Origin: an uncultured Candidatus Saccharibacteria bacterium
GTDB lineage: Bacteria; Patescibacteriota; Saccharimonadia; Saccharimonadales; Saccharimonadaceae
Assembly: GCA_947303945.1 (NCBI GenBank)
Contig: CAMYZS010000003.1
Span: forward strand, 4,716-68,715
Reading direction: 5' to 3'
DNA length: 64,000 nt
The position numbers and the translations under genes are program-made. The notes below the pieces were generated by a model that saw nothing but the letters and a program-made list of their open reading frames with translations, was not told the DNA's origin and did no database searches. This document shows positions 11,973 to 63,912 of the stretch, in pieces; position 1 is the stretch's first letter, and each line of letters begins with the position of its first letter.

Positions 11973-14900
11973 TCATCGCCAGCGCAGTACAGTACCGTCT
12001 TCATCGCTTTGAGACACCGTAACGCCGCTCTGATTGGCTTGTTTTTGTGGTTGAACTTTTGGCGCAGGTGCATTTGGAACCGCTACTGCTTCTTGACTAA
12101 CATTTAGAACTTTCCGTGGCTTATGGTGAATTTTTATCTTTGCATTCGACTTTAGAATATCGTCGGTATCCATTTTGTTCTTCTCCATAGTTGTACCTGC
12201 CGCATTTTCTGTTGCTACCGCCGTCCAAGACGACCCTGTCGACATTTCATTTAACTCCTCAGCCGCTTCAAGCTTACGCGCGTTTGTATCATGCTGGATA
12301 ATCGTCTCCGACGAATTCTTAACCGACTCTACCGAAGCTAAGGCTGGCTCTACTGTGGACAACGGTCCTGAAGCTGGCATAGATACTAAGTCTGGCGCAG
12401 GCTCCGATATTTGTGTAGCTAATGGTGTCGACATTGGCGCTAGTGTCGTTGTAGGCGTAGATGTAGACGTAGGCGTAGATGTAGACGTAGGCGCGAGCGT
12501 AGGCACTGGCACCAAGCTCGGCGCTGCTACCGAATCTGACATCGTCGCCATAGGCCTCGACGACGCCGTAGTTGGCGTTTTGGCTGTCGGCTTCGACGCC
12601 GAAACCGAAGCACCGCCACTAGCAACTTTATTCGCCTCCATCGCCTGAACCCCCTCTTCGCGACTCTTCTTCGCTAAGCTCGCCTTCTTCTCCAGCCATG
12701 AATCCAAAAAGTTCTTCTTTGGCTTCTCTGTCGGCTTTGGTGCACCACTCCTTACGCCAGCCGACGCCGCATCTGCCGCACCGCCATTTTTCGCCGCCGG
12801 ATCTTCATCCGTCGCCGCTAAACGTGCATCAATCTCCGCCTCAACCTCCGCACGTGGTCGACCATACCTCGACAAGGCATAGGCCTTCATCTTCTGCATC
12901 AATTCGTCATTATCTTCACCCATCGGCGGCAAAGATTTCATCGTAAATGGACTGGTCGGCGTATCAAACATCATTACCGTCGCAATCCAGTTAAAGTTCG
13001 GTTGTTTATGCAAATCTTCTGCATTAAATACTGGCGAGAATGCCTTCTCCATCAACTCAGCATCGGTTACGCCAATACGACCAGACATCAAAGTACCAAC
13101 GTTACCAAGCAAGGCTTCACGAATCTTATCCGTCAGCTGCGTCATGAACTGGTTCGCCAAGATCAAGTTCAAACGGTATTTGCGGGCCTCAGACAGAATC
13201 GACTCAAAGCTCTCTGTTGCGAAGTTCTGAAACTCATCTACGAAGAGACAGAAGTCGACACGTTCATCTTCTGGCGTATCCTGACGGCTCATAGCTGCAG
13301 CCTGGAACTTCATGACGAAGATCATACCCAAAAGCTTTGCGTTTAATTCACCAGTTTTACCCTTTGAAAGGTTCACTAAGAGAATCTTCTTATTGTCCAT
13401 GATTTCGCGAATGTTAAAGCCTGACTTGGTCTGTCCCAAGATATTACGCATCATCTTGTTCGATAGGAATGGACCCCACTTCGATACGAACCAGCTCGTC
13501 ACCTCACCTGCATCGTTCGACTTCTGCGAAGCTGGGAACTCTTTCGTCCAGTAATCATATACTGTTTTATCTGTTACGTACGGCAACTTTGACTTCACAA
13601 AATCTGCATCAATAAAACAGCGCGGAATATCAATAAAAGTGCCGCCCGCCGGATCACTCATGAGTAACAATGCCGCATTGCGAAACATATGCTGCGCGCG
13701 CGGACCAAAGATGCCTTGGTTGCCCGGGTCATACAACGAGGTCAGCATATTAATGCCTTCCTGCACGATAAAGTCTTTCTGATCCTCAGTCTGGAATTCA
13801 AACATGTTCATACCGACCGGATTATCCATATTGCCCGGCTCGAACAGGATCACATCATCCATACGCTCTCGTGGCACGCGGCTCAATAGCCACTCAACAG
13901 CATCACCGTGCGGATCAATGAAACAGAAACCACGTCCATCGCACATATCCTGGTATGCCAAGTTCTCCAAAAGTACGGATTTACCAGAGCCCGTAGCACC
14001 AATTGCATAAGTATGGCGGCGACGATCCTTTTCGCGTAAGCGGATCACTTTCTTTTCGCCGCGGAATTCATTTACACCCAAGACGATACCATCTTCGGCT
14101 AGCTTTGCTGGACCATCCACCTGTTTTACTGCCTGACGTTCTACTTGTGAGGTTGGAATTGCATTCTGTGCTGGTAGATGGAATAAACTCGCCATCTCTA
14201 CACTATTCAAAACCAAGCTCTTGTAAGTCTGAGGAAAAATCCTCAACACATAATCACGCGCTAAGTCCTCTGCCCTAGTCAGCGCATCGTAGCGAAAGCC
14301 ATTATATTGCGGCAAATCAAACTGTGAGAAAATCGATACCACCCCACCAAGCAATGACTCTGAACGCACTTTGCTTGACGAGCTCGCTACTATCCGTATT
14401 AAAACTTCAAAACCAGGATATTTAGTTTTTTCTTCAATTTTCTGAATTTCTTCTTGCTGTAAGTTAGTTAAGACTTTATCCTCGTTTTGATATTTATCGT
14501 GTTCACTCGGCGGTTCCCATAATGCGCGCGCCACATCGCCGACTAAATTACCAGCATTGTATACAACACGATTAATTAAATTACCCGTGCCACTTCGCCA
14601 TTTTTTACCATCCTTTATATTTTGTACTCGCGATAATGATTTTGTTACCCAACTACCATCAGTCGGACGGAACATAATCTGCAAGCCAATCCCATCGCCT
14701 TTCTTCGCTACCGACATAGCGTTAATCAAGCCTAGCGCCACATCGCGCTTCGTGTCCTCATAAGTAGCAATTGGATACCAATAATCCTCCTTCATACGCA
14801 ATTCACCCCCCGCAACAGTACTGATCTTCCCTTCCGCACTAAAGAAGTTGGGGTCCGCCACCTCCTCCAGACGTGCTGTCGGGTATGCCGCTGTAATCGC

Positions 14901-15272
14901 CTGCTTAATCGTTTCCGTCAAAACTGCCGGCACGACTGCATAATACTTAATAAGACCATCATGAGCCACAATCTCAAAACTAATATGCTTCTGTCCATAC
15001 AATTTCGCCTTCAGACCCTTCTTTAAAGTCGAAGAAATAATACTATACATCACCTGCGCCTCGGAAATCTGCTCGTTAATAACGTCGCGCTCATCGCGCC
15101 CGCCCACTTCAATATCGTCCGTACTCGGCGGAAGATGAATCAACATCGGCACCATCTTCAAGGCGCGCGCAATATTCTTCCTATCACGCTTACCGCCAGC
15201 CCAAATTTTCCATACGATTACCAAAAAAACAATTACTCCAACACCAAGAGCAACCATTTGCCAAATGTCCAT
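11973..15272 (-). CDS. TraD/TraG/VirD4-like (type IV coupling protein family) membrane P-loop ATPase with a long Ser/Thr/Pro/Ala-rich C-terminal tail
   Basis: 1099 aa. It has an N-terminal TM segment, Walker A YAIGATGSGKS, the Walker B-like FCLFVDEFQNF, and SEARKYRLNLILANQ as in TraD/VirD4/HerA-type ATPases. The last ~330 aa are low complexity (PTSTSTPTSTSTPTTT). Confidence 0.65.
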   Translation of the reverse strand: MDIWQMVALGVGVIVFLVIVWKIWAGGKRDRKNIARALKMVPMLIHLPPSTDDIEVGGRDERDVINEQISEAQVMYSIISSTLKKGLKAKLYGQKHISFEIVAHDGLIKYYAVVPAVLTETIKQAITAAYPTARLEEVADPNFFSAEGKISTVAGGELRMKEDYWYPIATYEDTKRDVALGLINAMSVAKKGDGIGLQIMFRPTDGSWVTKSLSRVQNIKDGKKWRSGTGNLINRVVYNAGNLVGDVARALWEPPSEHDKYQNEDKVLTNLQQEEIQKIEEKTKYPGFEVLIRIVASSSSKVRSESLLGGVVSIFSQFDLPQYNGFRYDALTRAEDLARDYVLRIFPQTYKSLVLNSVEMASLFHLPAQNAIPTSQVERQAVKQVDGPAKLAEDGIVLGVNEFRGEKKVIRLREKDRRRHTYAIGATGSGKSVLLENLAYQDMCDGRGFCFIDPHGDAVEWLLSRVPRERMDDVILFEPGNMDNPVGMNMFEFQTEDQKDFIVQEGINMLTSLYDPGNQGIFGPRAQHMFRNAALLLMSDPAGGTFIDIPRCFIDADFVKSKLPYVTDKTVYDYWTKEFPASQKSNDAGEVTSWFVSKWGPFLSNKMMRNILGQTKSGFNIREIMDNKKILLVNLSKGKTGELNAKLLGMIFVMKFQAAAMSRQDTPEDERVDFCLFVDEFQNFATESFESILSEARKYRLNLILANQFMTQLTDKIREALLGNVGTLMSGRIGVTDAELMEKAFSPVFNAEDLHKQPNFNWIATVMMFDTPTSPFTMKSLPPMGEDNDELMQKMKAYALSRYGRPRAEVEAEIDARLAATDEDPAAKNGGAADAASAGVRSGAPKPTEKPKKNFLDSWLEKKASLAKKSREEGVQAMEANKVASGGASVSASKPTAKTPTTASSRPMATMSDSVAAPSLVPVPTLAPTSTSTPTSTSTPTTTLAPMSTPLATQISEPAPDLVSMPASGPLSTVEPALASVESVKNSSETIIQHDTNARKLEAAEELNEMSTGSSWTAVATENAAGTTMEKNKMDTDDILKSNAKIKIHHKPRKVLNVSQEAVAVPNAPAPKVQPQKQANQSGVTVSQSDEDGTVLRWR
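12451..12504. repeat. 18-bp tandem repeat (2 perfect + 1 degenerate copy) inside the low-complexity tail of the ATPase
   Basis: gtaggcgtagatgtagac occurs at 12451-12468 and 12469-12486, followed by a diverged copy. It encodes STSTPT units on the minus strand. Confidence 0.8.
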
Positions 15273-39138: not shown

Positions 39139-39214
39139 GGGGTGTTAGCTCAGTTGGTAGAGCGACTGGTTCGCAATCAGTAGGTCAGGAGTTCGAATCT
39201 CCTACACTCCACCA
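39139..39214 (+). tRNA. tRNA-Ala (anticodon CGC), CCA encoded
   Basis: Acceptor ggggtgt/acactcc with the G3:U70 identity pair, and anticodon loop ttCGCaa. Confidence 0.9.
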
Positions 39215-39450
39215 AACGGTTTATGAAATAATTCGCAATCTATTCCTACTCTTTGCGATTCTGTTAAATTCCTCGTAGAAATAGAGGGCTATTTTTGTGT
39301 CATTTCGGTGACAAAAACACATTAAAAATCGTGTTTTACCTCTATAATTTTGTCGGTTAAATCCCTAATTTAATCTCATAAGCTTCGTTATAGTGTAGCT
39401 AAGAATAGTGTGTCCATTTAAAATACTTGTAAATATGCTACGATAAAACC

Positions 39451-39873
39451 ATGAGCACTAAATCTAATAAAACAAATATTCGTGTCAAAATTAACACCAG
39501 CTTGCTTTTTATTATGAGCGTGGTTTTTGGCGCCATCACTTTTACTACGGCTTCTAGTATCTACAAAGCTTCAAATAATTTTCAAAGCGTTTCTGATGCA
39601 CCAGGTCTTTGCTATGATGAAACTAAAGCTGAAGACTCATTCATCCGTGAAAATTCTTATATTTGCACTACTGAACACGACGAAGACGGTAACGCTTTGC
39701 AAGCTACAACGAACAATGAGAACACCCTCTTTCTCTATGATCGTCTGACACTATCCTCGTTGATTCGCTCTAGTGACCACATTGCCGTCATTTTATCTAT
39801 TGGCTCGATGTTTACTATCGCTAGCTTCGTCGCCACTTTTGTTTATTGGAATCATAATAAAGCTAAAATTTAA
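39451..39873 (+). CDS. Hypothetical membrane protein (N- and C-terminal TM segments)
   Basis: 140 aa with hydrophobic segments LLFIMSVVFGAITFTTA and AVILSIGSMFTIASFVATFVYW. Confidence 0.55.
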   Translation: MSTKSNKTNIRVKINTSLLFIMSVVFGAITFTTASSIYKASNNFQSVSDAPGLCYDETKAEDSFIRENSYICTTEHDEDGNALQATTNNENTLFLYDRLTLSSLIRSSDHIAVILSIGSMFTIASFVATFVYWNHNKAKI

Positions 39874-39992
39874 TAGAAATTAAGTTGACCAGCTAGTTCA
39901 CATATCTATAGTGCACGAGTTTTCCCCTAGGTCCTCTTTATACACTGTTAAAACTTGGCTAATTAAGCCCCACCAAGAATTATTACTCAAAC

Positions 39993-40016
39993 CTTGTTCA
40001 AAAAAATTTGAACAAG
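39993..40016. terminator. Bidirectional hairpin between convergent genes
   Basis: Perfect 10 bp palindrome cttgttcaaa-aaaa-tttgaacaag, with T/A runs on both sides. Confidence 0.55.
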
Positions 40017-40133
40017 ATTTTAGTAATTCACGGGTATCATCGACACATACTTTATACATACGCTGACTTATAGTTTTTCATTCTATCAATAAATACCGTT
40101 GACTGCATTGGGCTGTTTTTTTTAAAAACCGCG

Positions 40134-40233
40134 GAACTGGTGGCTCAATTACTTGTTTTGAGTGACTAGTTCTGAGGTTTTGGAATAGAGGCGCACCAAG
40201 CGGTGCGCCCTAGCAGTTTATTATGAAAGAATT
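40134..40233. repeat. Direct repeat copy A (about 100 nt) at the 3' end of the hexapeptide-repeat gene
   Basis: About 85% identical by eye to 41001-41101. It includes the last codons (..ILS*) and an 8 bp GC hairpin ggcgcacc-aagc-ggtgcgcc. Confidence 0.8.
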
Positions 40234-40880
40234 GTGTCTCCGGACACTTCGGTGTTTCCATAGACCTTAGCTTCACCATTGACATGGGCGTTACCGAAAA
40301 TCTTAGCATCGCCAAAGACATCGGCATAACCATAGACTAATGCGTTTCCGAAAATTCGTGCATTGCCGCAGATTCGGGCACTGTCGTAAATCTTAACACT
40401 TCCAGAAATCTTGGCGTTATCGTAGGCCCAGGCTCTGCCATAAACTTTGGCATTGTCGCAGACTTCAGCGTCGTCACGAATCAAGACCATATCGTAAATC
40501 TCAGCAAATCCATAGACCTTGGCGTTACCGTAGACTTCGGTACGACCGTAGACCTTGGCATGACCATAGACCTTGGCATGACCATAGGCAAGGGCGTTCT
40601 CAAAAATTTCGGCCCCATCATAGATTTGAGCGAAGCCGAAGAGCTCGGCATTACCGTAAACTATGGCATTACCACAAACTTTGGCCTTACCATAAACTTT
40701 GGCATTTCTAAAGATCCAACAAGAACCTTTCTGAGAAAGGTTTTCTTCTTTCTCGACCCAACCGCCTATGTCACCCCTTTTTACCCCTATTTCCGGAATA
40801 CCCTTAAGAGCTTTGATGCGATGAAGAATACGCCCAAACCATTGCATAGTTTCTGTAGTCAATTCAAATTTTTTATCCAT
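40221..40880 (-). CDS. Hexapeptide-like repeat protein (about 25 tandem xxVYGN units; predicted beta-helix)
   Basis: The likely start is ATG 40880, 7 nt after GGAGGGG (MDKKFELTTETMQWFGRILHRIKAL...). The track ORF extends to 41063 through repeat copy B. The C-terminal 160 aa read NAKVYGKAKVCGNAIVYGNAELFGFAQIYDGAEIFENALAYGHAKVYGHAKVYG... Confidence 0.65.
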   Translation of the reverse strand: MDKKFELTTETMQWFGRILHRIKALKGIPEIGVKRGDIGGWVEKEENLSQKGSCWIFRNAKVYGKAKVCGNAIVYGNAELFGFAQIYDGAEIFENALAYGHAKVYGHAKVYGRTEVYGNAKVYGFAEIYDMVLIRDDAEVCDNAKVYGRAWAYDNAKISGSVKIYDSARICGNARIFGNALVYGYADVFGDAKIFGNAHVNGEAKVYGNTEVSGDTILS

Positions 40881-41000
40881 AATATACCCCTCCATTGAGC
40901 CGAATAGTGAAATAATGGAAAGACTATGCCCTATGTTAGCGGCATCTTCTTTCATAACCTTAAGGTGCTCCTGTGTTTTTGTCGTATTAGCAAAACTACA

Positions 41001-41101
41001 GGACTGATGACTCAATGCCATGTCTTGAGTGACCGGTTCTGAGGTTTTGGAATAGAGGCACACCTAAAGGTGCGCCCCAACAGTTCATTATGAAAGAATC
41101 G
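41001..41101. repeat. Direct repeat copy B (about 100 nt) upstream of the hexapeptide-repeat gene
   Basis: It aligns with 40134-40233, carrying the same ..ILS* codons (41088-41099) and a degenerate version of the GC hairpin. Confidence 0.8.
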
Positions 41102-41330
41102 CGGCTTCGACTGTTAGCTTTTTATGTCTTGGCGAGTTTCCGGATTATTTTTCCATAATCCTTCATAATAAGCTTTACAACATTATCCATTTCGTCCATT
41201 GCGGACTTTAATCTTCTTAGCTATTTTTTCGGCTATCAGACTTCTATTATACTATAGGAGACCATCCTCTCGAATAATCCCACCCTGCATACATCTTGAT
41301 ACTATGCCCATTTAGACAGTTTCGAATTGC

Positions 41331-41516
41331 CTACTCATTAACCTCAAGTATTTTGCCAATCTCCCTACTCCGGTATCCGTCGGTATAAAGTTAAATCGCT
41401 CCTTCGGCTTCGAGAGCTTCCCCATCTTTTTTACGCGTTGTTACAACCTCCGCCTCATTAAAAGCATTACGGATAGTTATTCGATGAGCCCCCATATACT
41501 GCCGCAAGCTAACCCA
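41331..41516 (-). pseudogene. Remnant of an HTH-containing gene (in-frame TAA, no start)
   Basis: The minus frame reads WVSLRQYMGAHRITIRNAFNEAEVVTTRKKDGEALEAEGAI*LYTDGYRSREIGKILEVNE*. The tail resembles resolvase/LuxR/sigma-r4 type HTH (GYs..EIgkiLgV). Confidence 0.35.
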
Positions 41517-41582
41517 TTTCAAATGTTAGATTAAATAAAGTTGCGAGAGTCCCCACCATATTTAAAGACTGCTCAGTCTTTT

Positions 41583-41855
41583 TTAATACCGCATCGGACG
41601 TTGCACGGAAGTCGGAATATCATTAAACATATCCGTCTTTGTAACTAGGCTAGAAACATCCCAATTGTTAAGCGGTTCCAGACTTGCAATCGCAGAGTCT
41701 TGGATAGAACTATCTGCGCGGGATACAGCACCAATGGTACCATCCGAGGTCGTAACGAAGCCTTGAAACTCAAGGCCATCAGGTATCTTGTCTATGACGG
41801 AGATTCTACCGCTATATACACTTATAATAATTTTGCCAATATCGTGTTCCGCTTA
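41583..41855 (-). pseudogene. Start-less fragment of a surface-protein gene (DUF285/BspA-like WDVS..V..M..MF motif)
   Basis: The minus frame reads AEHDIGKIIISVYSGRISVIDKIPDGLEFQGFVTTSDGTIGAVSRADSSIQDSAIASLEPLNNWDVSSLVTKTDMFNDIPTSVQRPMRY*. It has no canonical start codon and overlaps the sortase 3' end. Confidence 0.35.
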
Positions 41856-42550
41856 TTCTTCTCTTTCCCGTCGCACGTCGATAATAGTATATACTTACTG
41901 TTCGAGTCATAGTCTTCTACGCTTATTGATGACTTATTATCAATAATATCTCTTGCTACATTCTTATCATTTCGACTCTTCTCCACATTGTATACTCCTC
42001 AATCGTTCGCCATGATCTCGGCATAAGAAATAAGCTTAAGTTCAATTGTCCGATCACGCATTTTTAAATAACCCTTTGGGTGACTTCTTAAAAAAGCTTC
42101 ATCGCTAAAATAGTGAATATCCGAGAACATCTCACCATTACCCATTCTGTGGCCATATATTACAGAAAAGACATCATTAAATCTAGCGCTATTCCTATAA
42201 TCTAAAAACAAACTTCCAGCAGTCGCAAACTCGCCTTTATAATTACGATTTAGAAACCAACTATTATCCTCGCCCTGCACTAGCGGATAATTAATTCGCG
42301 TCCCCTCAATTTTCAACCAAGCTATTACATACTCCGAATCCTCTTCCAACTTCTCAAACGCCTCTGCACTCCGCTCTTCCACCATTTTCACCAGCTGCCC
42401 ATCAACTATGGAACTCTTACTTACCAATACTGAATCTATCATCACATAAACACCCAACGCCATAATCGGCACAACCATCAAGTAAATAGCTAGATCCAGA
42501 ATTCTATTAGTCAACCTCATGAGCAAGCCCTCGCACGCATACTCTGGCAA
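41822..42550 (-). pseudogene. Class B sortase, full-length frame interrupted by a single in-frame TGA (41999-42001)
   Basis: The track ORF 41999-42550 ends ...EIMAND*. The same frame continues GVYNVEKSRNDKNVARDIIDNKSSISVEDYDSNSKYILLSTCDGKEKNKRNTILAKLL* with the catalytic LSTC Cys and conserved Arg. The N-terminal part has the SrtB-like NYPLVQGEDNSWFLNRNYKGEFATAGSLFLDYRN and IYGHRM. The total is 242 codons, normal SrtB size. The likely start is ATG 42520 (MRLTNRIL). Confidence 0.8.
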
Positions 42551-42806
42551 TTATCTTCCCTTTTACTATTCCATCTTTTGCATTATCATACATTACCGCA
42601 TCGCCACTATCCATCAGTAACAAGTCGTTTGTACCATAATTACGGCACACTCTACAAAACAACACTAAGTCACCGTCAATTTTGCCAACACCTCTTTCGA
42701 TGCCAAAAACTACACCAAACATGACATAGAATATATTCACGGCAAACAGCGCTTTTAGAAAAAGGCGCGCCCACTCGCGCCCTTTTCTTCGTTTTATTTT
42801 GAGCAT
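42507..42806 (-). CDS. Small membrane protein, possibly a catalytically dead signal-peptidase-like (SipA/LepA-type) pilus assembly factor
   Basis: 99 aa with an N-terminal TM. FGIERGVGKIDGDLVLFCRV aligns loosely with the S26 box SGSMEPT...GDLVLV but lacks the Ser. It overlaps both neighbours translationally. Confidence 0.4.
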   Translation of the reverse strand: MLKIKRRKGREWARLFLKALFAVNIFYVMFGVVFGIERGVGKIDGDLVLFCRVCRNYGTNDLLLMDSGDAVMYDNAKDGIVKGKIIARVCVRGLAHEVD

Positions 42807-43873
42807 TTTGTTTTACGTTGTTTCTTTTTATTCATATAAACAATTGTCACAAATAGCCCACAAATACCTATCGCTAACACATATGGCATAATATCAATCA
42901 TAATACCTGTCAGCACACTCCCTTCTTTATGGTTTAAGAAATCAACCCGGTTGCTCGCTCCATCTTCCGTAACAGAAACCGTTTTTGTTTCAGAAGTATT
43001 ACCAAGCACATCGTCAACATACTGCGTATAGCCATTCGCGTCAACCTCAATTAAACTATACGTTATTCCAATTGGTAGTTCTTCTTTTTCGCCATCATAA
43101 CCGATATATGCAGTCTGTCCATGCTTTAGATATATATAACTATTATTATCGCCAACAGTAATTTTATCGGTAGTAGCTATACTAGAGCCACCATATCTTA
43201 TTACACTATCCTGACCATATACTGTAAACTCATTACCATTTCCAATGCCATTTATTATTACTTTGTATTTAAAATAATCATCTACGCTTGCCAAGTTTCC
43301 GCTTACCGTGTTAGTTACTTCAATCCTACTTCTCACTGCTACTGACTCAAAATTTGCATCTGTTTTATCGCCAGTATCATGATTCTTCACCTGTTCAGAC
43401 ATCGTAGCAATATACTCACCAGTCGGTTGACCGTCATCATTGAGACGGTTGCGTACGCTCACATAATAATAGTACTCTTTCTCGCTATCGACTGGATAGT
43501 TTACCGCATCTTGCGACCTCGTCTCACGTACGACAAACTTATAATCGCCCAAAGCTGTAAAGTCATAATTCTTAATTTTTAGACCGCCCTGCACCACAAC
43601 ATTACCATCCGAGTCGGGGTCCCCAGTTACCTCGAGTCCAAATTCATCTGGTAATCCTTCAAGTACTGCTGGATTACCTTCATCTTGCGTTAATGAATAA
43701 TAAAATACATTACTTACTCGACTCTTTAATCCACGAATTGTACGCGTAACTCTTATTCAATTCGGACTATCTGGATTATTCGCCAATGTCGTGCTTGTGG
43801 CATGTGCCGTCGACAATGCAAATGGTGCCGCTAATATGCTTAAAATTGCCCCAATTTTTAATGCCTTCCTCAT
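42794..43873 (-). pseudogene. Sortase-substrate surface protein / pilin-like, full-length frame interrupted by a single in-frame TGA (43757-43759)
   Basis: ATG 43873 sits 5 nt after GGAGG. The frame reads MRKALKIGAILSILAAPFALSTAHA (Sec signal) TSTTLANNPDSPN*IRVTRTIRGLKSRVSNVFYYSLTQDEGNP...VVVQGGLKIKNYDF, continuing in frame into track ORF 42794-43597. The C-terminus EGSVLTG plus a hydrophobic stretch plus KKKQRKTK is a cell-wall sorting signal. Confidence 0.75.
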
Positions 43874-43996
43874 ATTACCTCCGTTTAACTTTTATAAAAC
43901 ATCAAAATATCACGGGCCAGACTTCATTCTTACCTCCACATTAATTGCTAACTGTACTTTAAAACAAAAAAATTAGCATCAAAAGCATAAGTTTAA

Positions 43997-46062: not shown

Positions 46063-47583
46063 TCAGAGATTATCCCTATAGCTTGCTCGCTTCTTAATAA
46101 ATACTACTACGCATATGACATACATCATTATTGCGGACATTAATACACCAACACCTACACAAATCCACATCATTATGTTTGAACTATCATTTTCATCGTT
46201 GGCTATCTTTCTCTCCGGCATTTCCTCAACCGGATGTAGTCCACTATATGCCATAATTGCACCGCTTGCCACATTGAGCTTAATCTTCTCTTCCGCTTTC
46301 CCCACGGTCTCCTTATCCGCATAATACTTCGATCCGCGTACCGAATAACTCGCCTCTTTCTCAACCGTCGTCGCAAACGCACGATATCCTTTTGGCATTT
46401 TCATTTCATATGCCTCACTTTCGTCATCGTAATTAACAACCTCAAAACTCTTTTCAGCACTCATATCTACCGACTCCGAAAACACCGCCTGCAAAAGATT
46501 ACCCTCAACGCTCACCCCCTCTTCTAACGGCATTTTTTCTCCATCCGTATATAAACGAGTAATTCCAGCATCTTTCCCAATCACGATATTGCTTTCAATA
46601 TCATTTCCGGCACCGTTCCCAATCCCAGCCGCACCCCAACCTGCTACTGCATTCTCTATAGATCCACCAATAATACTCATCGTTACTTTTGTATCAATAT
46701 CACACATTTTCGCGCCCGACCCAATCGCCGCACCGCCCATCATTTCATCTGCGCTGCTTTCGTACCCTTTTATATCACTAAAGGAACCTTTATTTATTTT
46801 AATAATTACATTATTACTACAAAAGCCACCACCAATCCCGGCCGCGTATTGGCCACCATAAACTGCCTTAAATACACCGTCATTAACCGCAATTGCAGCA
46901 TCGATATATTTTCCACCACCAATACCAGCGCCACCACCGTTACCTGTCGCAGAAATAGCGCCACCATCAACACTAATACTACCAACCGAGTATTTAGAAT
47001 CCAATATCGATTCGGAGCCCCAACCGCCTCCAATACCTGAACTATTTTTTTGCGCAATCGCCACAATCTCTCCGCCCCTAATAATAATCTTTCCATTGAT
47101 AGCGTCCACATTTTTCGTACCATTACCGCCAATACCAGCACCGCCATCAGTTCCACCAGTTGCCGACAGAGAGCCTTCGCCATCGATAATCAAGGTCGCC
47201 ATACTGCCAGTACTATTAAATCCCACGTTAATGCCAGCACCACTCCCCTCCCCTTCTACTTTATTATTTCCGTCAAGAATCAACTCAGCTTTTACGCCAC
47301 TATCCACAGAAATTGCCGCCCCTTGCGAAGATATTATCGTAGCGTTACTTAATATGATTTTTGAGTCACCTATTACTCGAAGCGGCACATCCGATTCTCC
47401 AGACACCTTCACTTCACCGCCGCTAATAATAATCTCTCCATCAACTAATAAATAGCTTCCGCCATTCTCGCCACTACTTATATCGTAGCCGCCCACACCG
47501 CTAGCGTAAACACCCTCAGAAATTATAAAACTCACCCCTAGCATGAAAAATATACCAAAAAAAGCTTCACAACTTCTACGCAT
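46063..47583 (-). CDS. Secreted, C-terminally membrane-anchored beta-helix protein (Cthe_2159-like carbohydrate-binding family)
   Basis: 506 aa with a signal peptide. Repeated GGAGIGGxG / AAGIGGGF / GAAGIGNGAG turns occur, and the C-terminal TM is IMMWICVGVGVLMSAIMMYVICVVVFIKKR. Confidence 0.65.
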   Translation of the reverse strand: MRRSCEAFFGIFFMLGVSFIISEGVYASGVGGYDISSGENGGSYLLVDGEIIISGGEVKVSGESDVPLRVIGDSKIILSNATIISSQGAAISVDSGVKAELILDGNNKVEGEGSGAGINVGFNSTGSMATLIIDGEGSLSATGGTDGGAGIGGNGTKNVDAINGKIIIRGGEIVAIAQKNSSGIGGGWGSESILDSKYSVGSISVDGGAISATGNGGGAGIGGGKYIDAAIAVNDGVFKAVYGGQYAAGIGGGFCSNNVIIKINKGSFSDIKGYESSADEMMGGAAIGSGAKMCDIDTKVTMSIIGGSIENAVAGWGAAGIGNGAGNDIESNIVIGKDAGITRLYTDGEKMPLEEGVSVEGNLLQAVFSESVDMSAEKSFEVVNYDDESEAYEMKMPKGYRAFATTVEKEASYSVRGSKYYADKETVGKAEEKIKLNVASGAIMAYSGLHPVEEMPERKIANDENDSSNIMMWICVGVGVLMSAIMMYVICVVVFIKKRASYRDNL

Positions 47584-47722: not shown

Positions 47723-48133
47723 ATGGCCAAGAAAGCTAAATATAATACCTTAAATCGAAATCATTTTCTACAAACCGTGCAATCATTCCACCGTCCTTTT
47801 TCCGCAAAAGATATTGCCGATAAGCTTCAATCCAGCGAAAACCCCATGGGCACCAGTACCATTTACCGTTTTTTGGACGAATTTACGTCTGACGGCATCC
47901 TCCGAAAGACACTCGGCGAAGATAATACTGCTCGTTTTTTCTACTTCAAACCTTGCAATAATGAGAATCATTTTTATCTTGAATGCGAAAGATGCCACTC
48001 CTTTTTTCATCTTGATTGCAAGCATCTACATAGCTTCTCAAAACATCTCGCCAAAAAGCACTCATTCCAAGTTTCAAGTTATAACTTGATAATTACTGGA
48101 ACATGCGCAAATTGCTCTAAGGATAACAAATGA
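47723..48133 (+). CDS. zur: Fur-family metalloregulator, probably Zur
   Basis: 136 aa with the wHTH (FSAKDIADKLQSS...STIYRFLDEFTSDGILRK) and CxxC pairs (CERCHSFFHLDC, CANC). It overlaps znuA (ATGA). Confidence 0.8.
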   Translation: MAKKAKYNTLNRNHFLQTVQSFHRPFSAKDIADKLQSSENPMGTSTIYRFLDEFTSDGILRKTLGEDNTARFFYFKPCNNENHFYLECERCHSFFHLDCKHLHSFSKHLAKKHSFQVSSYNLIITGTCANCSKDNK

Positions 48134-57670: not shown

Positions 57671-58762
57671 TCACTCATTCTCATTTGCGTCTGGGCTCGC
57701 CGTTGCCGGCGCCTCACCGCTTTGATCTATTTTTACATCAATTTTTTCAATAATCTTCCCCTCGTCACGCAACCTTTGAATCTCGTTATTGACTTTTGAA
57801 AAACGAATCGAGATTGTCTCATAGCTTACCTTATCCTTGTCTTTTTCAACTAAACGCACATAATAATAACCATCGCCATTCTTTGAAACAAAGCGCTCCG
57901 ATACGTCGCCTTTCTTCTCCAATTTCATCGCAACTTCTGCGCGTCCGCTATCTAGATTCGATATATCGACCGCATTGCTAGCAGCTTCATAGCTCACTAG
58001 ATCATTGTCCTTTAGAATATCGGCAACTTTCGAAAAATCGTTATTATTTTCACGCAACGCATCGTCAACTTCATTGGCCGCCTTCTTTGCTTCGTCGTCA
58101 ATCTCAATCGATAGCTTACGCTTCGCGAGCGACAACATAATCAAACGTCGATATTCCGAAATACTCAAGTTAAAGTTATCCCTAACTATTCCCTCAAATG
58201 CTTCATCGCCACGCTTCTCGCCGCCAATACTCTTATGACTATCAATAACTTCGTCAATCTCTGAAGTTGAGACCGTTAAATCGCGAGCCTCCAACTCTGC
58301 CAATACATACGCATACATTTCTGCGTCATTTAGTGCTTGGCGCTTATAAAACAGCTTCTGCGCCCTCACCTCTTCATTGCTATCATCAAGCTTACCTTGC
58401 TGGCGTTCGATTGAAGTGATACTACTTCGATACAACATCAAATAATCACTATATAAAACCTTATGGCCGTCAATCTCCGCAACCGGCAATCCTAGCACTT
58501 TCGTAAAACGATATGCAACGTCGCCAGTATTTTGAGCTCTATATAACTGATGCCAGCCGATACTAATAAATGTCGCAATCGCCACAATTGCAATCACGAT
58601 TGTCGATGCTACGATTTTATGTTTCGCATACTGAAATGGGTATTTAAACTTTTTACCCTTAGCTAAAATCTCTTCGCGACTTTCCTCTAGGTTCTGTTGC
58701 GTTATATTAATATCTTTTTTCTCAGAGCGACGCTCTTTGATATTCTTAATTAACTTGTTCAT
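57671..58762 (-). CDS. SurA/PpiD N-terminal-domain-like membrane-anchored chaperone (no obvious PPIase domain)
   Basis: 363 aa with a single TM (VASTIVIAIVAIATFISI), followed by a helical domain resembling the SurA_N/PrsA N-terminal region. Confidence 0.45.
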   Translation of the reverse strand: MNKLIKNIKERRSEKKDINITQQNLEESREEILAKGKKFKYPFQYAKHKIVASTIVIAIVAIATFISIGWHQLYRAQNTGDVAYRFTKVLGLPVAEIDGHKVLYSDYLMLYRSSITSIERQQGKLDDSNEEVRAQKLFYKRQALNDAEMYAYVLAELEARDLTVSTSEIDEVIDSHKSIGGEKRGDEAFEGIVRDNFNLSISEYRRLIMLSLAKRKLSIEIDDEAKKAANEVDDALRENNNDFSKVADILKDNDLVSYEAASNAVDISNLDSGRAEVAMKLEKKGDVSERFVSKNGDGYYYVRLVEKDKDKVSYETISIRFSKVNNEIQRLRDEGKIIEKIDVKIDQSGEAPATASPDANENE

Positions 58763-59539: not shown

Positions 59540-60154
59540 TTAACGCGTAAACTTTTCACTCAAGGTATGATACATATGAATCTCCTCAGGCTTAAACCAG
59601 TATGAAACTTCAGCATTCGCTTCATCAGGATTACCGGAAGCATGAATTAGGTTCGGCACCGCCTCATCGTGCGCATCAGCATAACCAAAAGAAATATGCG
59701 CATAATCGCCACGAATCGTACCCATGTCAGCCGCCATCGGTTCAGTCGAACCGACCATTTTTCGCACAAGCGGCACAGCCTCTACGCCTTCGAGTACCAT
59801 CGCAATCACTGGACCAGAAGTCATAAATTTTAGAGTAATATCAAAGGTCTTCTGGCCACGGCGCGAAATCATCTTCGATATACCCTCATAGTGCTGATAA
59901 TAATGATCCTTATCCGGGTTCACCATCTTAGCACCTACAATTTTCAAACCGACTCGTTCAAAACGGCTTAATATCTCACCCACAATTCCACGCTGCACCG
60001 CATCTGGCTTAAATACCACCAAAGTACGCTGGACTAAACCATTTGGATTATTATCTTTTGTAAAGCCAACATTCGAAGCAGTTACTTCTGCTGCTTCATT
60101 TTTTTTCTTTTCAGCTTCTTTCTTATCTACCATATTTTTCTCCCTTTTCAACAT
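59540..60154 (-). CDS. ndk: Nucleoside-diphosphate kinase (with an N-terminal extension of about 40 aa)
   Basis: 204 aa with RTLVVFKPDAVQRGIVGEILSRFERVGLKIVGAKM and the active-site NLIHASG. Confidence 0.9.
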   Translation of the reverse strand: MLKREKNMVDKKEAEKKKNEAAEVTASNVGFTKDNNPNGLVQRTLVVFKPDAVQRGIVGEILSRFERVGLKIVGAKMVNPDKDHYYQHYEGISKMISRRGQKTFDITLKFMTSGPVIAMVLEGVEAVPLVRKMVGSTEPMAADMGTIRGDYAHISFGYADAHDEAVPNLIHASGNPDEANAEVSYWFKPEEIHMYHTLSEKFTR

Positions 60155-60177
60155 TATATACCAAATAAGGTCCTTTA

Positions 60178-61134
60178 CTATGCTTTATCTGTTTTTCTCT
60201 CAACATCACTATGAAACTTTTCATGTATTTCCCGCAGATGCGGGTCTGTTACATGTGTATATATTTGCGTTGTCGAAATATTTGAGTGTCCCAACAAAGA
60301 TTGTACCGAACGCAAATCCGCCCCATTCATTAGTAAATCAGTCGCAAACGAATGGCGCAAAGTGTGCGGCGTTACATGTTTCGTAATACCAGCCGCTCGT
60401 ACATATTTATTTATTATCCTCTCCACACTTCGCGAAGATAGCCTCCGATAATCTCCAGAAGTCCCCACCGCCGGCTGATTACGCGAGTTATTCAAAAACA
60501 AAGCCGGCAAACTATCCTTGCGTTCATCTAAATAATCCCTTACCGCATCTGCCGCCGATTGCGACACAAACACGGGGCGATCTTTTTGCCCTTTTCCGCG
60601 CACCATAAACTCGCGTCGTTCCAGGTTTATATGATCACGGTTTAAATTAGTTAACTCCGACACACGCAAGCCGGTCGAGAACAATAATTCAAATATCGCC
60701 CGATCCCGCAAACCGTCTTCAGTGTCTAACGGAATCTCTGCCAGTATTCGGTCTATTTCGTCGATATGTAAAAAGGTCACCTGCGATCGATGCGTACGTG
60801 GCAATTCGACTAAAACCGGATCTAGTGACTTGATGTTTCGTTTCGCTAAATATTTCAGAAACCCACGTAATGCTATTAGATGATAATTTTGCGTCATTAC
60901 AGATAACCCTTTGTCGCGCTCAGTTTGGTACCGATTCAACCATAAACGATATTTTCGTAGCCATTCCGCCGTAATTTCAGATGGCCTCAAATCGTCTTCA
61001 GGGTTCGTCTCTTGGCTAAATTCAACCACTCGCGACAAGTATAGCTCATAGTTTCGCGTCGTATATCGACTGCGACCATTCTCAACTTCTAACGATTCCA
61101 AAAAATCATTAATTAAATCCGATACGTACATCAA
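60178..61134 (-). CDS. Tyrosine recombinase XerC/XerD family
   Basis: 318 aa with GLRVSEL, HTLRHSFATDLLMNGADLRSVQSLLGHSNISTTQIYTHV. Confidence 0.88.
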   Translation of the reverse strand: MMYVSDLINDFLESLEVENGRSRYTTRNYELYLSRVVEFSQETNPEDDLRPSEITAEWLRKYRLWLNRYQTERDKGLSVMTQNYHLIALRGFLKYLAKRNIKSLDPVLVELPRTHRSQVTFLHIDEIDRILAEIPLDTEDGLRDRAIFELLFSTGLRVSELTNLNRDHINLERREFMVRGKGQKDRPVFVSQSAADAVRDYLDERKDSLPALFLNNSRNQPAVGTSGDYRRLSSRSVERIINKYVRAAGITKHVTPHTLRHSFATDLLMNGADLRSVQSLLGHSNISTTQIYTHVTDPHLREIHEKFHSDVERKTDKA

Positions 61135-61994
61135 ACCACAATCAAATTAAGAATTTGCGTTTGCAGAAAAAACACAACTAAAAACCCTAAAATCAAAAAT
61201 GGACCAAACGGAATTGCAGTTTTTGCCCCCTTCTTTTTTAACAATACCGGTATCGACGCGAAACTCCCTATTATATTCGCCGCAAATAACGCACATAATG
61301 ATAACCAAAAGTTCCCCAATATCAACGCCAATGATATGCATAAAATCCAATCACCACCACCAACCCACGATTCATTGCTAACTCTATACATTAAATAATA
61401 AAAGCCCGGCAATACCACTAGAGCCCCCGCTAGACTCAACCAATTGAAACTATTGCCCATTCCATAAGTCATAGCCACATCTATTCCGCAAAAAATCATC
61501 GCAATTATCGCCGCCGCCACCATTAACCCAACTGGCAACTCTTTCCATTTTGCATCATAAACAAATAAAACCAATAACACAACAAGTTCAACTAAGAATA
61601 ATCCAAACCTCAGAATCTCTGCCAAACCAAACCACATTAAAGCTTCCCGCGCTGGCCATAGCCAAAAACTAACCACAAACACAACTCCTAATCCAACTTC
61701 CGATAAGAATTCCGACCAACCAATCGGCTTTCGACACTTGCGACATTTTCCGCCCAGCATCAACCAACTAATCACCGGTATATTGTCATACCATCGCAAA
61801 CAGTATTTACATTTTTCACAATGCGACCATTTTGATTTGTCTTTATCGTGAATCCGCCACGCCTGACAACAGGCAAAAGATCCTAGCGTTGCGCCTAAAA
61901 TAAAAAACAATATAATTACGCCTACGCTTTCCATACTACCTATATTACCACAAAAAGAAGCCCCTTCTAGGGGCTCCTTTTGAATATCTAGCAA
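61131..61994 (-). CDS. pilD: Prepilin peptidase (A24 family)
   Basis: 287 aa. It has N-terminal Cys pairs (CCQAW...CEKCKY...CRKC), a polytopic body and the GGGDWIL motif. Confidence 0.88.
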   Translation of the reverse strand: MLDIQKEPLEGASFCGNIGSMESVGVIILFFILGATLGSFACCQAWRIHDKDKSKWSHCEKCKYCLRWYDNIPVISWLMLGGKCRKCRKPIGWSEFLSEVGLGVVFVVSFWLWPAREALMWFGLAEILRFGLFLVELVVLLVLFVYDAKWKELPVGLMVAAAIIAMIFCGIDVAMTYGMGNSFNWLSLAGALVVLPGFYYLMYRVSNESWVGGGDWILCISLALILGNFWLSLCALFAANIIGSFASIPVLLKKKGAKTAIPFGPFLILGFLVVFFLQTQILNLIVV

Positions 61995-61997
61995 ATA

Positions 61998-62549
61998 TTA
62001 GTGATTATCATTACAAGCGATAGCACCACCTTCTAGCTTCATGAAGACGGCAACGTCGCGATCACCAGTACCGGAATTAGTCTTACCTTCATCGCCACAA
62101 GTAGCATTGTAGTAACCGTAGAAGTTCTTCTCTTTAAGACCACTCGAGATATCAGTTCCATTAGTAGCTTTACCTTTGTCGCTCATACCATAAGTATCAC
62201 CCTGCGGATCTCGGAACTCATTCGAGCCAGCATCACAAGTATAGCCATGCGCAGTTGTATCGCCATTAGCGCCACCAGTCTTAGGATCACAGGTCTTATC
62301 AAGATAACGTTTTACGAAATTGTCAACATTACCACTAGTACCATCAAATGGAACCTTACCATTATTATTTGCTTGATATTGATTTACTGCCGTAAGTACG
62401 CGAGCTAGATCATCTTCGCGCTGAGTATTACGTTGCGAACGCTGCAAAGCAGGAAGCGCAATAAACACCATCAAGAAGATAAGACCCGCAATTGCAAGTA
62501 CCAAGACTACCTCAATGATCGTAAAGCCTTTTTTATTTTTTGTTGTCAT
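61998..62549 (-). CDS. Type IV pilin (prepilin-type N-terminal cleavage/methylation domain)
   Basis: 183 aa, MTTKNKKG/FTIIEVVLVLAIAGLIFLMVF, with Cys pairs in the C-terminal globular part. Confidence 0.9.
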   Translation of the reverse strand: MTTKNKKGFTIIEVVLVLAIAGLIFLMVFIALPALQRSQRNTQREDDLARVLTAVNQYQANNNGKVPFDGTSGNVDNFVKRYLDKTCDPKTGGANGDTTAHGYTCDAGSNEFRDPQGDTYGMSDKGKATNGTDISSGLKEKNFYGYYNATCGDEGKTNSGTGDRDVAVFMKLEGGAIACNDNH

Positions 62550-62644
62550 TTTATGCTCCTTTTTTATTTTTGCACCAGCAATTGCCCTTTGGCTACTAGG
62601 AAACCTTCCTAGTCATTGCCGAGTGCAAAATTGCATCTAACCCT

Positions 62645-62673
62645 AATATACATAATCCTTATGCTAAAATCAA
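62645..62673 (-). promoter_or_regulatory. Candidate promoter of the major pilin gene
   Basis: Minus strand reads TTGATT (62673-62668), 17 nt, TATATT (62650-62645), leaving a hairpin-rich 5' UTR of about 90 nt. Confidence 0.45.
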
Positions 62674-62712
62674 GCTTAATTTTTTTCGCTCAAAGTCACA
62701 CTCTTATTACTG

Positions 62713-63912
62713 CTAACCAATCGAGTTGACGAGCGAGTAAATCGGAAACAGTACACCACCTACCAAAAGCCCAGCAACCACCGCTAGCATTATCATCATC
62801 AAAGGCTCAATCATCGCCGAAATCGTCGCAATCTTCTCATCTAGCTCATCTTCAAACACTTGCGCCGCCTTACCGAGCATTTCGTCCATCTTACCAGACT
62901 GTTCGCCAATCGCCGCCATCTGATAAACTAAGGGCATAATATAATCTTGTTCTTTCAAAGCGTCCGACATCGTTCGTCCCGATTGCACCTTCTCCGCCGC
63001 TTTATCTATGTTCTCCTGCACAACCACATTCGCCGTCGATTCGCCCGCAATATGCATCGTATCTAGCACTGCTACTCCAGTAGATAGCAGGATTTGCGAA
63101 ATCCTCGAAAAACGCGACATATACAAAATCCTAAACAACCCATTAAACATTGGAATATTCAACTTTACCGTCGCCAACACCTTAATGCCACCTTCTGTCT
63201 TTTTCCATTGCATAAAGAACGCAACAAGAACGACTAATATTACTAGAACAAGCCACCACATATTCAATAAGAAATCTTTTATTCCAACCATAATAACCGT
63301 CAATACTGGCAGTTTTTCGCCAAGATCGTTATATAACGATTCAACATGTGGAACAACTTCAAGCATCATATAAATAAAGACAACTATAATAACGCCCAAA
63401 GTGATTAACGGCATCGCTAACGCGCTTTTAATCTTACTTAGCATCCTTTGATCTTTTTCTTCCTGATCCGCAATTCTTCGCAAACTCTGGTCAAGAGTAC
63501 CCGAAGCCTCACCCGCTTTAATCAATGATAGATATACTTTATTAAACACGTCTGGGTGTTTCTCAAAAGCCGAACTCAATGAACGGCCTGCTTCGATATC
63601 GGCTAATATTTCCTCGATAATCGCTTTCATTGCCTTATTATCGGTCTGCTCACTCACCGTACGCATCGCCTGCGCAATCGGCAAACCCGCACCCACCAAA
63701 GTTGCAAACTGGCGCGTAAAATTAATACGGTCTTTTGCTGTAACTTTATTCATCTTTTCGGCCAAGCCGCCACCCTCTTCCTTCAGAACCTCGGGCACAT
63801 AGCCGCGATCCACCAACAGCTTGCCAGCCACACGTTCAGTCTCGGCCTGAATTGTGCCTTTAATAACCCTACCCGTACTCTGCTCTTTCGCTTTGTAGGT
63901 AAAACGTTTCAT
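62713..63912 (-). CDS. pilC: Type IV pilus platform protein (GspF/PilC family)
   Basis: 399 aa with two T2SS-F repeats (INFTRQFATLVGAGLPI... and RFSRISQILLSTGVAVL...) and 3 TM segments. Confidence 0.9.
   Translation of the reverse strand: MKRFTYKAKEQSTGRVIKGTIQAETERVAGKLLVDRGYVPEVLKEEGGGLAEKMNKVTAKDRINFTRQFATLVGAGLPIAQAMRTVSEQTDNKAMKAIIEEILADIEAGRSLSSAFEKHPDVFNKVYLSLIKAGEASGTLDQSLRRIADQEEKDQRMLSKIKSALAMPLITLGVIIVVFIYMMLEVVPHVESLYNDLGEKLPVLTVIMVGIKDFLLNMWWLVLVILVVLVAFFMQWKKTEGGIKVLATVKLNIPMFNGLFRILYMSRFSRISQILLSTGVAVLDTMHIAGESTANVVVQENIDKAAEKVQSGRTMSDALKEQDYIMPLVYQMAAIGEQSGKMDEMLGKAAQVFEDELDEKIATISAMIEPLMMIMLAVVAGLLVGGVLFPIYSLVNSIG

Follow-up and report, generated by a model that had tools for sequence, protein, structure and literature searches.

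Introduction

Several bacteria limit the output of their pili after transcription has been initiated, through inefficient decoding at the operon start or close to it. This is the case for CS3 of Escherichia coli, which involves the bypass of an amber codon. Two further examples are EbpA of Enterococcus faecalis, with its rare ATT start (PMC4447247), and Pil1 of Streptococcus gallolyticus, with its leader-peptide attenuation (PMC3894217). Here we describe a putative pilus operon of an uncultured Candidatus Saccharibacteria bacterium in which output may be limited in the same general manner but by a different device, namely an internal UGA codon in the backbone pilin gene, to be read as sense or as stop, and again such a codon in the sortase gene. 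The operon lies on a stretch of 64,000 nucleotides (contig CAMYZS010000003.1 of assembly GCA_947303945.1, positions 4,716 to 68,715), which was analysed as a whole and is hereafter called the window; all coordinates refer to it.

The closest described relative of the apparatus itself is the FCT pilus of Streptococcus pyogenes (Spy0128/FctA, Spy0129/SrtC1 and SipA), with which the Saccharibacteria cassette shares a pilin homologous to the T antigen, a class B sortase (matching, among others, the structure 3psq) and a small membrane protein whose gene sits between those of the pilin and the sortase, placed like the streptococcal helper. The two systems differ in their hosts, the present one being an episymbiont of the Candidate Phyla Radiation (CPR), and in the sorting motif, which is here xVLTG. 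We know of no streptococcal pilus gene that needs stop-codon readthrough.

In-frame UGA codons have been described in other settings, each of which resembles the present locus in part. Leaky readthrough of UGA as tryptophan (Trp) has in common with it the competition with release factor 2 (RF2), the dependence on the base that follows the codon (+4) and the lack of a dedicated RNA structure; the UGAs described here, in contrast, are internal to chromosomal genes and would be required for the functional product (rather than for a C-terminal extension), are conserved across a bacterial family and are clustered in one operon. In genetic code 4 (Mycoplasmatales, Hodgkinia, Zinderia, JAKLIH01 and Eggerthellaceae; PMC13092985, PMC13462651), UGA likewise stands at Trp positions and TGG and TGA replace each other, whereas in our locus UGA stops the neighbouring genes and in-frame UGAs occur in two to three genes, a situation closer to a hypothetical “ambiguous intermediate”. 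Within Patescibacteriota, UGA decoded as Trp has been reported only for the family JAKLIH01 (Minisyncoccia) (PMC13092985). Finally, alternatively coded phages carry in-frame TGA or TAG codons in their late genes together with a suppressor tRNA that unlocks these genes (PMC10746230), and there, too, the stops are confined to a gene set and may act as a translational lock; here, in contrast, we deal with a chromosomal, syntenic operon that lies off viral contigs, and no suppressor tRNA was found in the clade sequence scanned. Our literature search returned no report of UGA readthrough, of UGA decoded as Trp or of sortase-assembled pili in Saccharibacteria.

Based on the comparison of orthologous loci, the reading that we favour, with a probability of roughly 0.6, is a selected, operon-specific UGA readthrough in competition with RF2, which would throttle or gate the pilus operon. 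The original prediction for this stretch, made by a model from the sequence alone, had listed low-level readthrough among several possible explanations of the two TGA codons; it is the option that survives the comparison, and it does so in a stronger form, since the UGAs appear conserved or selected, would be read as Trp in the sortase and lie in weak termination contexts.

Results

The pilus cassette and its in-frame TGA codons

The cassette consists of three genes on the minus strand: the backbone pilin gene (42794..43873; 360 codons), a small gene that has been kept in the cassette and encodes a 99-residue protein with a single transmembrane segment and no assigned family (42507..42806), and the class B sortase gene (41822..42520; 232 codons). 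The pilin gene is preceded by an intergenic leader (43874..43996, minus strand) containing a GGAGGT ribosome-binding site 8 nucleotides 5' of the ATG, after which a signal peptide is encoded. Its frame contains a single in-frame TGA at codon 39 (43757..43759, minus strand), 13 codons past the predicted signal-peptide cleavage site, reads MRKALKIGAILSILAAPFALSTAHATSTTLANNPDSPN-TGA-IRVTRTIRG... and is otherwise uninterrupted down to a TAA stop. The sortase frame reads ...SYAEIMAND-TGA-GVYNVEK...LLSTCDGKEKNKRNTILAKLL-TAA, with the TAA at 41824-41822, and its single in-frame TGA at codon 174 (41999..42001, minus strand) falls in a column of the alignments that is nearly invariantly Trp (“DW.IYNV”). 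No frameshift or further stop interrupts either frame, which bears out the original prediction of exactly one TGA in each of two otherwise intact genes. The sortase length of 242 codons given there holds if translation starts at the TTG at 42550, but the ATG at 42520 (232 codons) is the more likely start because it better matches the N-termini of the orthologues. The small gene overlaps the stop of the pilin gene by 13 nucleotides at its start and the start of the sortase gene by 14 nucleotides at its end, and the three genes very probably form one translationally coupled operon.

Both TGAs are also present in an independent assembly from ENA (locus L001), which is 99% identical to the window and has two amino acid differences in the sortase; an assembly error, which the original prediction had wished to see excluded, is therefore ruled out. 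The TGAs recur, moreover, in multiple independent assemblies.

The assignment of both proteins, which had been proposed without database searches, is upheld by profile comparisons. The sortase matches PF04203 (E=8.7e-9) and TIGR03064 (E=7e-44; 149.9 bits, slightly below the equivalog cut-off of 153.75), and its profile matches the SrtB structures 4y4q (5e-46) and 3psq (1e-36) in the PDB, from which it is classified as a class B sortase. Its His124, Cys216 and Arg224 are invariant in the alignment and the LSTCD...R motif is retained. Since His124 is encoded upstream of the TGA and Cys216 and Arg224 downstream of it, a complete catalytic triad in one polypeptide is obtained only with UGA readthrough. 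The pilin matches the Pfam family DUF7601 (E=1.5e-10) and, over profile positions 53-315, the T-antigen pilins of S. pyogenes in the PDB (8f70, 3e-21; 6n0a, 9e-11; 3b2m/Spy0128, 1e-7). Its translation begins with a signal peptide (MRKALKIGAILSILAAPFALSTAHA...) and ends in a sorting signal, ...HKEGSVLTG-IMIDIMPYVLAIGICGLFVTIVY-MNKKKQRKTK, composed of the motif, a transmembrane helix and a basic tail; the signal peptide is connected to the body of the protein only across the TGA. By these features it is classed as a T-antigen/FctA-type, sortase-assembled backbone pilin. Pfam and PDB sequence searches with the small protein gave no match, and no similarity to SipA or to a signal peptidase was detected. 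On this evidence, the three genes probably encode a sortase-assembled pilus of the Streptococcus T-antigen type in a family of Saccharibacteria found mainly in the rumen.

Termination at the pilin UGA would leave a pre-peptide of 38 residues (43760-43873), whose cleavage would free a conserved 13-residue peptide, TSTTLANNPDSPN; a second secreted product is thus conceivable.

Conservation of the in-frame TGA codons

The orthologous loci compared (designated L001 and so on) all come from metagenome-assembled genomes of Candidatus Saccharibacteria, from yak and sheep rumen where the source is stated, and one of them is labelled Nanosyncoccaceae. Their gene order is conserved, with ZnuA, FUR, a gene of about 506 residues, a 121-residue gene and a 540-residue gene, followed by pilin, small gene and sortase. 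Across the family, identity is 81-90% for the 540-residue neighbour and just 50-71% for the pilus proteins.

The pilin TGA is found at the identical codon, shortly after the signal peptide, in 11 of the 12 distinct orthologous loci, and is always followed by ATA, ATG or ATT. About 20 of the 21 pilin protein clusters (at least 52% identity) have been called only from just 3' of the TGA codon, P0122 alone being full-length. At this site, the more distant, full-length pilin homologues carry K, M, A, T, S or D. As the residue varies, there is no conserved Trp at this position, and the conserved feature is the TGA itself. In the one exceptional locus, L021 (ENA ERZ27257202, a contig of 2339 nucleotides), the codon is replaced by AAA (Lys), and neither the small gene nor the part of the sortase borne by the contig has an in-frame TGA; among the sequences retrieved, no other non-identical pilin is closer to that of the window.

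The pattern in the sortase is a different one. The in-frame TGA occupies W174 in the window, L001, L002, L007/L016, L008 and L010-14, W68 in L009, L015 and L018 (which is more distant), and W197 in L022, with an extra TGA at W21 in L007/L016; L019, L020 and (in the partial sortase on its contig) L021 have none. All four columns align with TGG-encoded Trp in other species, so that the orthologue alignment suggested in the original prediction gives Trp at the sortase site and, as described above, a variable residue at the pilin site. In L005-7 and L016, the small gene (about 5667-5903 in L005) has a TGA at a conserved Trp, where the window has TGG (“GREWARLF”). A split-enzyme model for the sortase was discarded as not credible, as it would require four different split points.

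In-frame stops in the cassette orthologues are exclusively TGA, with no TAG or TAA among them, and the true stops of all three genes are TAA or TAG in every locus examined. A Trp codon yields TGA or TAG equally by one transition. At least seven independent events at Trp sites all gave TGA and none gave TAG (p = 0.008). More distant SrtB homologues (30-40% identity) are intact and, where truncations are present, these lie off the Trp columns; in the sequences compared, the phenomenon is thus limited to the clade of the window plus L018.

These observations bear on the possibility, also raised in the original prediction, that the cassette came from a donor in which TGA is a sense codon. The TGAs would then be relics of a horizontal acquisition from Mollicutes, from code-4 Eggerthellaceae or from a code-4 phage. 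The cassette ranks low in GC content within the window, and the pilin has the lowest GC content at third codon positions (0.30) of 30 genes; in addition, code-4 Actinomycetota live in mammalian guts (PMC13462651). The cassette GC is nevertheless inside the range of the window, the syntenic position is identical in all family members, the cassette was not found on viral contigs, and TGG and TGA have repeatedly changed into each other inside this family of Saccharibacteria. A relic would also be expected to be purged or to decay, and its maintenance would be left unexplained. Such a donor is neither needed nor supported, and we consider this origin very improbable.

Selection on the downstream frame

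Pairwise synonymous divergence (dS) between species is above 1.4 or saturated. For the pairs where it is computable, the ratio of nonsynonymous to synonymous substitution rates (dN/dS, or omega) of the sortase is 0.15-0.27 for the part after codon 174 and 0.08-0.27 for the part before it, and in the close pair L010/L012, which shares the TGA, omega is 0.20 downstream versus 0.13 upstream. No second stop or frameshift was found in any orthologue (at least 12 lineages). The sortase region downstream of the TGA is, by these estimates, under purifying selection. A conserved in-frame stop and purifying selection on the frame that follows it are signs of programmed readthrough, and both were found here.

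The low omega downstream and the lack of further lesions are incompatible with recent or ongoing pseudogenisation. The suggestion of a very recent, parallel nonsense inactivation of both genes is refuted by the same data, together with the occurrence of the pilin TGA in 11 of 12 orthologues and the saturated synonymous divergence. It is true that the adhesin gene adjoining the cassette in the window is degraded, as would be expected if the cassette as a whole were being lost. Yet independent assemblies agree, the TGA position is conserved and TGA is the only stop seen at Trp columns, and we regard plain pseudogenes, ongoing loss of the cassette or sequencing and assembly error as scarcely credible.

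UGA as a stop codon in the clade

Over the 58 genes of the window, the cassette has 2 in-frame TGAs and 3 TGGs, versus 0 in-frame TGAs and 146 TGGs elsewhere (Fisher p = 9e-4). Ten other genes of the window terminate in TGA, with short extensions. Two of the genes with a TGA end lie at a distance of 2-4 kb from the cassette, namely the FUR-like gene (47723-48133) and the 506-residue gene (46063-47583), whose orthologues stop in TAA or TAG at the same position or a few residues away. No in-frame TGA was found in the flanking genes of 15 loci, nor in the large downstream surface proteins of L005-7. In these genomes UGA is thus, as judged from gene ends, a genuine stop. The exclusion of a genome-wide code 4 or 25 in the original prediction stands, given the TGA ends of neighbouring genes and the coinciding C-termini of their orthologues. 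Genetic code 4 was accordingly rejected: UGA serves as a stop in window and clade, and of the genes examined only those for the pilin, the small protein and the sortase contain in-frame UGAs. An apparent TGA-crossing extension of 70 codons of the gene at 57671-58762 was attributed to the antisense conservation of an adjoining gene.

TGA is the least-used stop in the clade (window plus 10 loci), with 22 of 147 (15%) compared to 32 (22%) for TAG, a ranking below TAG that is, to our knowledge, unusual for a bacterium of 42% GC. This low usage is consistent with a leaky UGA. The enrichment of backup stops after TGA stops was not significant.

Stop usage also bears on an alternative in which the in-frame TGAs have no regulatory role. 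In an incipient or ambiguous reassignment, a partial decoder of UGA as Trp (such as a 4-bp-stem tRNA-Trp or a UCA suppressor) would exist beside RF2 and TGG would drift to TGA in genes that are insensitive to the level of their product, the pilus genes being such genes by chance. The sortase TGAs, which shift among Trp positions with none, one or two per gene, look much like such a mutation-selection balance, and a reduced use of TGA as a stop has been reported for bacteria with a tRNA-Trp whose anticodon stem has 4 base pairs (PMC13092985); one Saccharimonadales genome, of a different family, carries such a 4-bp-stem tRNA-Trp (PMC13092985 supplement). Drift of this kind does not account for the pilin TGA, which is off any Trp position yet fixed in nearly all lineages despite saturated synonymous divergence, nor for the lack of in-frame TGA in the other genes of the window, poorly conserved ones included. 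We hold it to be unlikely.

Sequence context and search for a decoder

The base that follows the in-frame TGAs is never T (0 of 21; always A, C or G), versus 8 of 22 genuine TGA stops with T (p = 0.002). The same bias appears within the sortase Trp columns, where T follows none of 10 TGA codons and 18 of 37 TGG codons (p = 0.004). The Leu codon after W68 is CTN (CTG or CTA) in all three TGA lineages and TTG in 6 of 7 TGG lineages, and W88, whose next codon encodes Phe (TTY), is never TGA. U at +4 is a recognised strong termination context in bacteria (PMC5289835), and a pattern without U is what would be expected if the UGAs must outcompete RF2.

No conserved RNA structure was found 3' of the pilin TGA (RNAalifold predicted no base pairs for 10 orthologues), and recoding stimulated by a pseudoknot or by an element resembling the selenocysteine insertion sequence (SECIS) is therefore disfavoured. 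Selenocysteine was rejected, given this lack of downstream structure and the residues of the homologues, which are Trp in the sortase or K/M/A/T/S/D in the pilin and never Cys.

The context data also speak to a heritable ON/OFF or high/low switching by point mutation, in which lineages would flip between TGG and TGA at Trp codons and TGA would be the OFF or nearly OFF state of a surface antigen under fluctuating selection. Such switching would fit the existence of near-identical protein pairs that differ by Trp versus stop at one column (P0008/P0024, P0023/P0031 and P0025/P0028), and of a TGA-free variant (L021) beside variants with a TGA in the pilin only (L019 and L020). On the other hand, no homopolymers or repeats that would raise the mutation rate are visible around either TGA, the pilin TGA is stable across species, and purifying selection downstream in lineages that have the TGA by descent (L010-L014, omega 0.20) implies an expressed allele; the restriction to TGA and to a non-U context is likewise unexpected for a plain OFF state. 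To our judgement, switching has only a slim chance of being correct. Repeat-mediated phase variation, as a mechanism in its own right, was rejected, no simple-sequence repeat or homopolymer being seen at either TGA.

The search for a decoder covered about 300 kb of clade sequence, including the window and its flanks, in which tRNA-Trp, a tRNA with anticodon UCA and prfB are all absent. A scan of the window for the GGQ motif of a release factor was negative. A scan of metagenomes for Trp-like tRNAs with anticodon UCA returned 61 low-GC aquatic contigs, none of which shares a protein with the clade.

Neighbourhood of the cassette

Immediately downstream of the sortase gene lie degraded fragments of a large VWA/DUF285 surface protein (41063..41821, minus strand), identified by their match to intact relatives; the DUF285-type remnant noted in the original prediction is thus real. 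The fragments (41063-41822, minus strand; “RISVIDKIPDGLEFQGFVTTSDGTIGAVSRADSSIQ...LEPLNNWDVSS”) match the N-terminal part of intact proteins of 1717-1734 residues found 3' of the sortase in L005-L007. The intact protein is likely a pilus-associated adhesin in these relatives, and the copy in the window looks internally deleted; it has no part in the recoding and represents the only true decay seen at the locus.

Between the sortase gene and the tRNA-Ala(CGC) gene (39139-41821 in the window) lies a slot whose cargo varies. L010 and L012 have nothing there, L002 has a 518-residue T4SS_pilin/Big_2 protein, L006 has an FtsK_gamma protein plus a giant adhesin, and the window has the remnant and a beta-solenoid gene. 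The latter (40221-41063) encodes a 280-residue protein of YdcK type and is flanked by direct repeats of 118 nucleotides (81% identical; 40125-40242 and 40992-41109); the gene may have been inserted as a cassette.

Type IV pilus genes are present some 16 kb away from the sortase pilus (59540-63912 and beyond the 3' end of the window, as seen in L084), comprising a PilC-like T2SSF protein, an N_methyl pilin and a prepilin peptidase; the PilB-like ATPase of this set lies beyond the 3' end, and a XerC-type integrase is found among its genes. Farther away, directly upstream of gyrB-gyrA, the gene at 11973-15272 (minus strand) encodes a protein of 1099 residues with weak similarity to VirD4/TraD coupling proteins.

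Discussion

A proposed readthrough gate on the pilus operon

Of the categories available, the locus is best filed under programmed stop-codon readthrough, given its behaviour in the comparisons with code 4, selenocysteine, pseudogenes and repeat-driven phase variation, none of which fits. In the mechanism that we propose, UGA would be a normal RF2-type stop in these genomes, and the in-frame UGAs of the pilus operon would be maintained and translated by readthrough. Trp would be inserted at the UGAs of the sortase (and of the small protein), while the residue at the pilin UGA would be unconstrained. Because readthrough would compete with termination, each UGA would cut the yield of full-length protein; at codon 39, the pilin UGA would come early enough to throttle the entire coupled operon, and the sortase UGAs would add to the effect. 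The operon would thus be kept low, or its level would depend on suppression. The decoder would be a tRNA-Trp, either the ordinary one with anticodon CCA, a variant whose anticodon stem has 4 bp, or a suppressor with anticodon UCA. The peptides expected from such readthrough are LISYAEIMANDWGVYNVEK across the sortase UGA (with Trp inserted) and TSTTLANNPDSPNWIR across the pilin UGA (the residue at W being left free).

From the combined data we infer that readthrough is partial and has a regulatory role. It is probably inefficient, because in-frame UGAs are absent from all other genes examined; it would be harmful in ordinary genes and tolerated or useful in the pilus operon. In the pilin gene, a UGA at a position where the residue is unconstrained appears, from its distribution among the orthologues, to be actively maintained, and near-neutral turnover is incompatible with such a pattern.

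A number of points weigh against this reading. When events are counted conservatively, the +4 test weakens to p = 0.055, and the lineage counts are not phylogenetically independent. The sortase pattern, taken by itself, would also fit a near-neutral turnover between TGG and TGA under a partial decoder, and does not speak for selection for TGA in that gene. The locus without a TGA in its pilin or its partial sortase implies that the gate is dispensable. Nothing local, apart from the simple +4 context, accounts for the operon specificity, there being no conserved structure after the pilin codon, and neither the clade sequence nor the metagenome scan supplied a decoder. Furthermore, a backbone pilin is normally required in many copies, a demand that fits poorly with leaky expression.

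More tentatively, readthrough of this kind may be one face of a broader state, in which UGA has a dual meaning throughout the family. The family would then represent a living “ambiguous intermediate”, in which RF2 stops translation at most UGAs and a trans-acting decoder (a 4-bp-stem tRNA-Trp(CCA) or a regulated UCA suppressor) reads those in weak contexts, a property used as a translational lock on a pilus operon for host contact. We look on this extension as possible, but doubtful. If it were true, piliation would be set by the balance between decoder and RF2, for example through the growth state or through tryptophan obtained from the host bacterium.

Implications for Saccharibacteria

One consequence of the in-frame TGAs is practical. 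Gene callers split or truncate these genes, so that in public data the pilin appears as a piece of 38 residues and another of 267-320 residues, and the sortase as fragments of about 134 to 201 residues; the whole sortase-pilus system of rumen Saccharibacteria is thereby mis-annotated as fragments or pseudogenes.

If the favoured reading is true, the operon would be one of few examples, in cellular bacterial genes that use the standard code, of UGA readthrough that is conserved and needed for function. In relatives from the same phylum UGA has been completely reassigned, to Gly (Gracilibacteria and Absconditabacteria) or Trp (JAKLIH01), and the “ambiguous intermediate” route to codon reassignment would become directly testable in extant genomes. 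The attachment of Saccharibacteria to their hosts is mediated by surface filaments, and a codon-level gate on a pilus of Gram-positive type would suggest a new layer of control over the interaction with the host.

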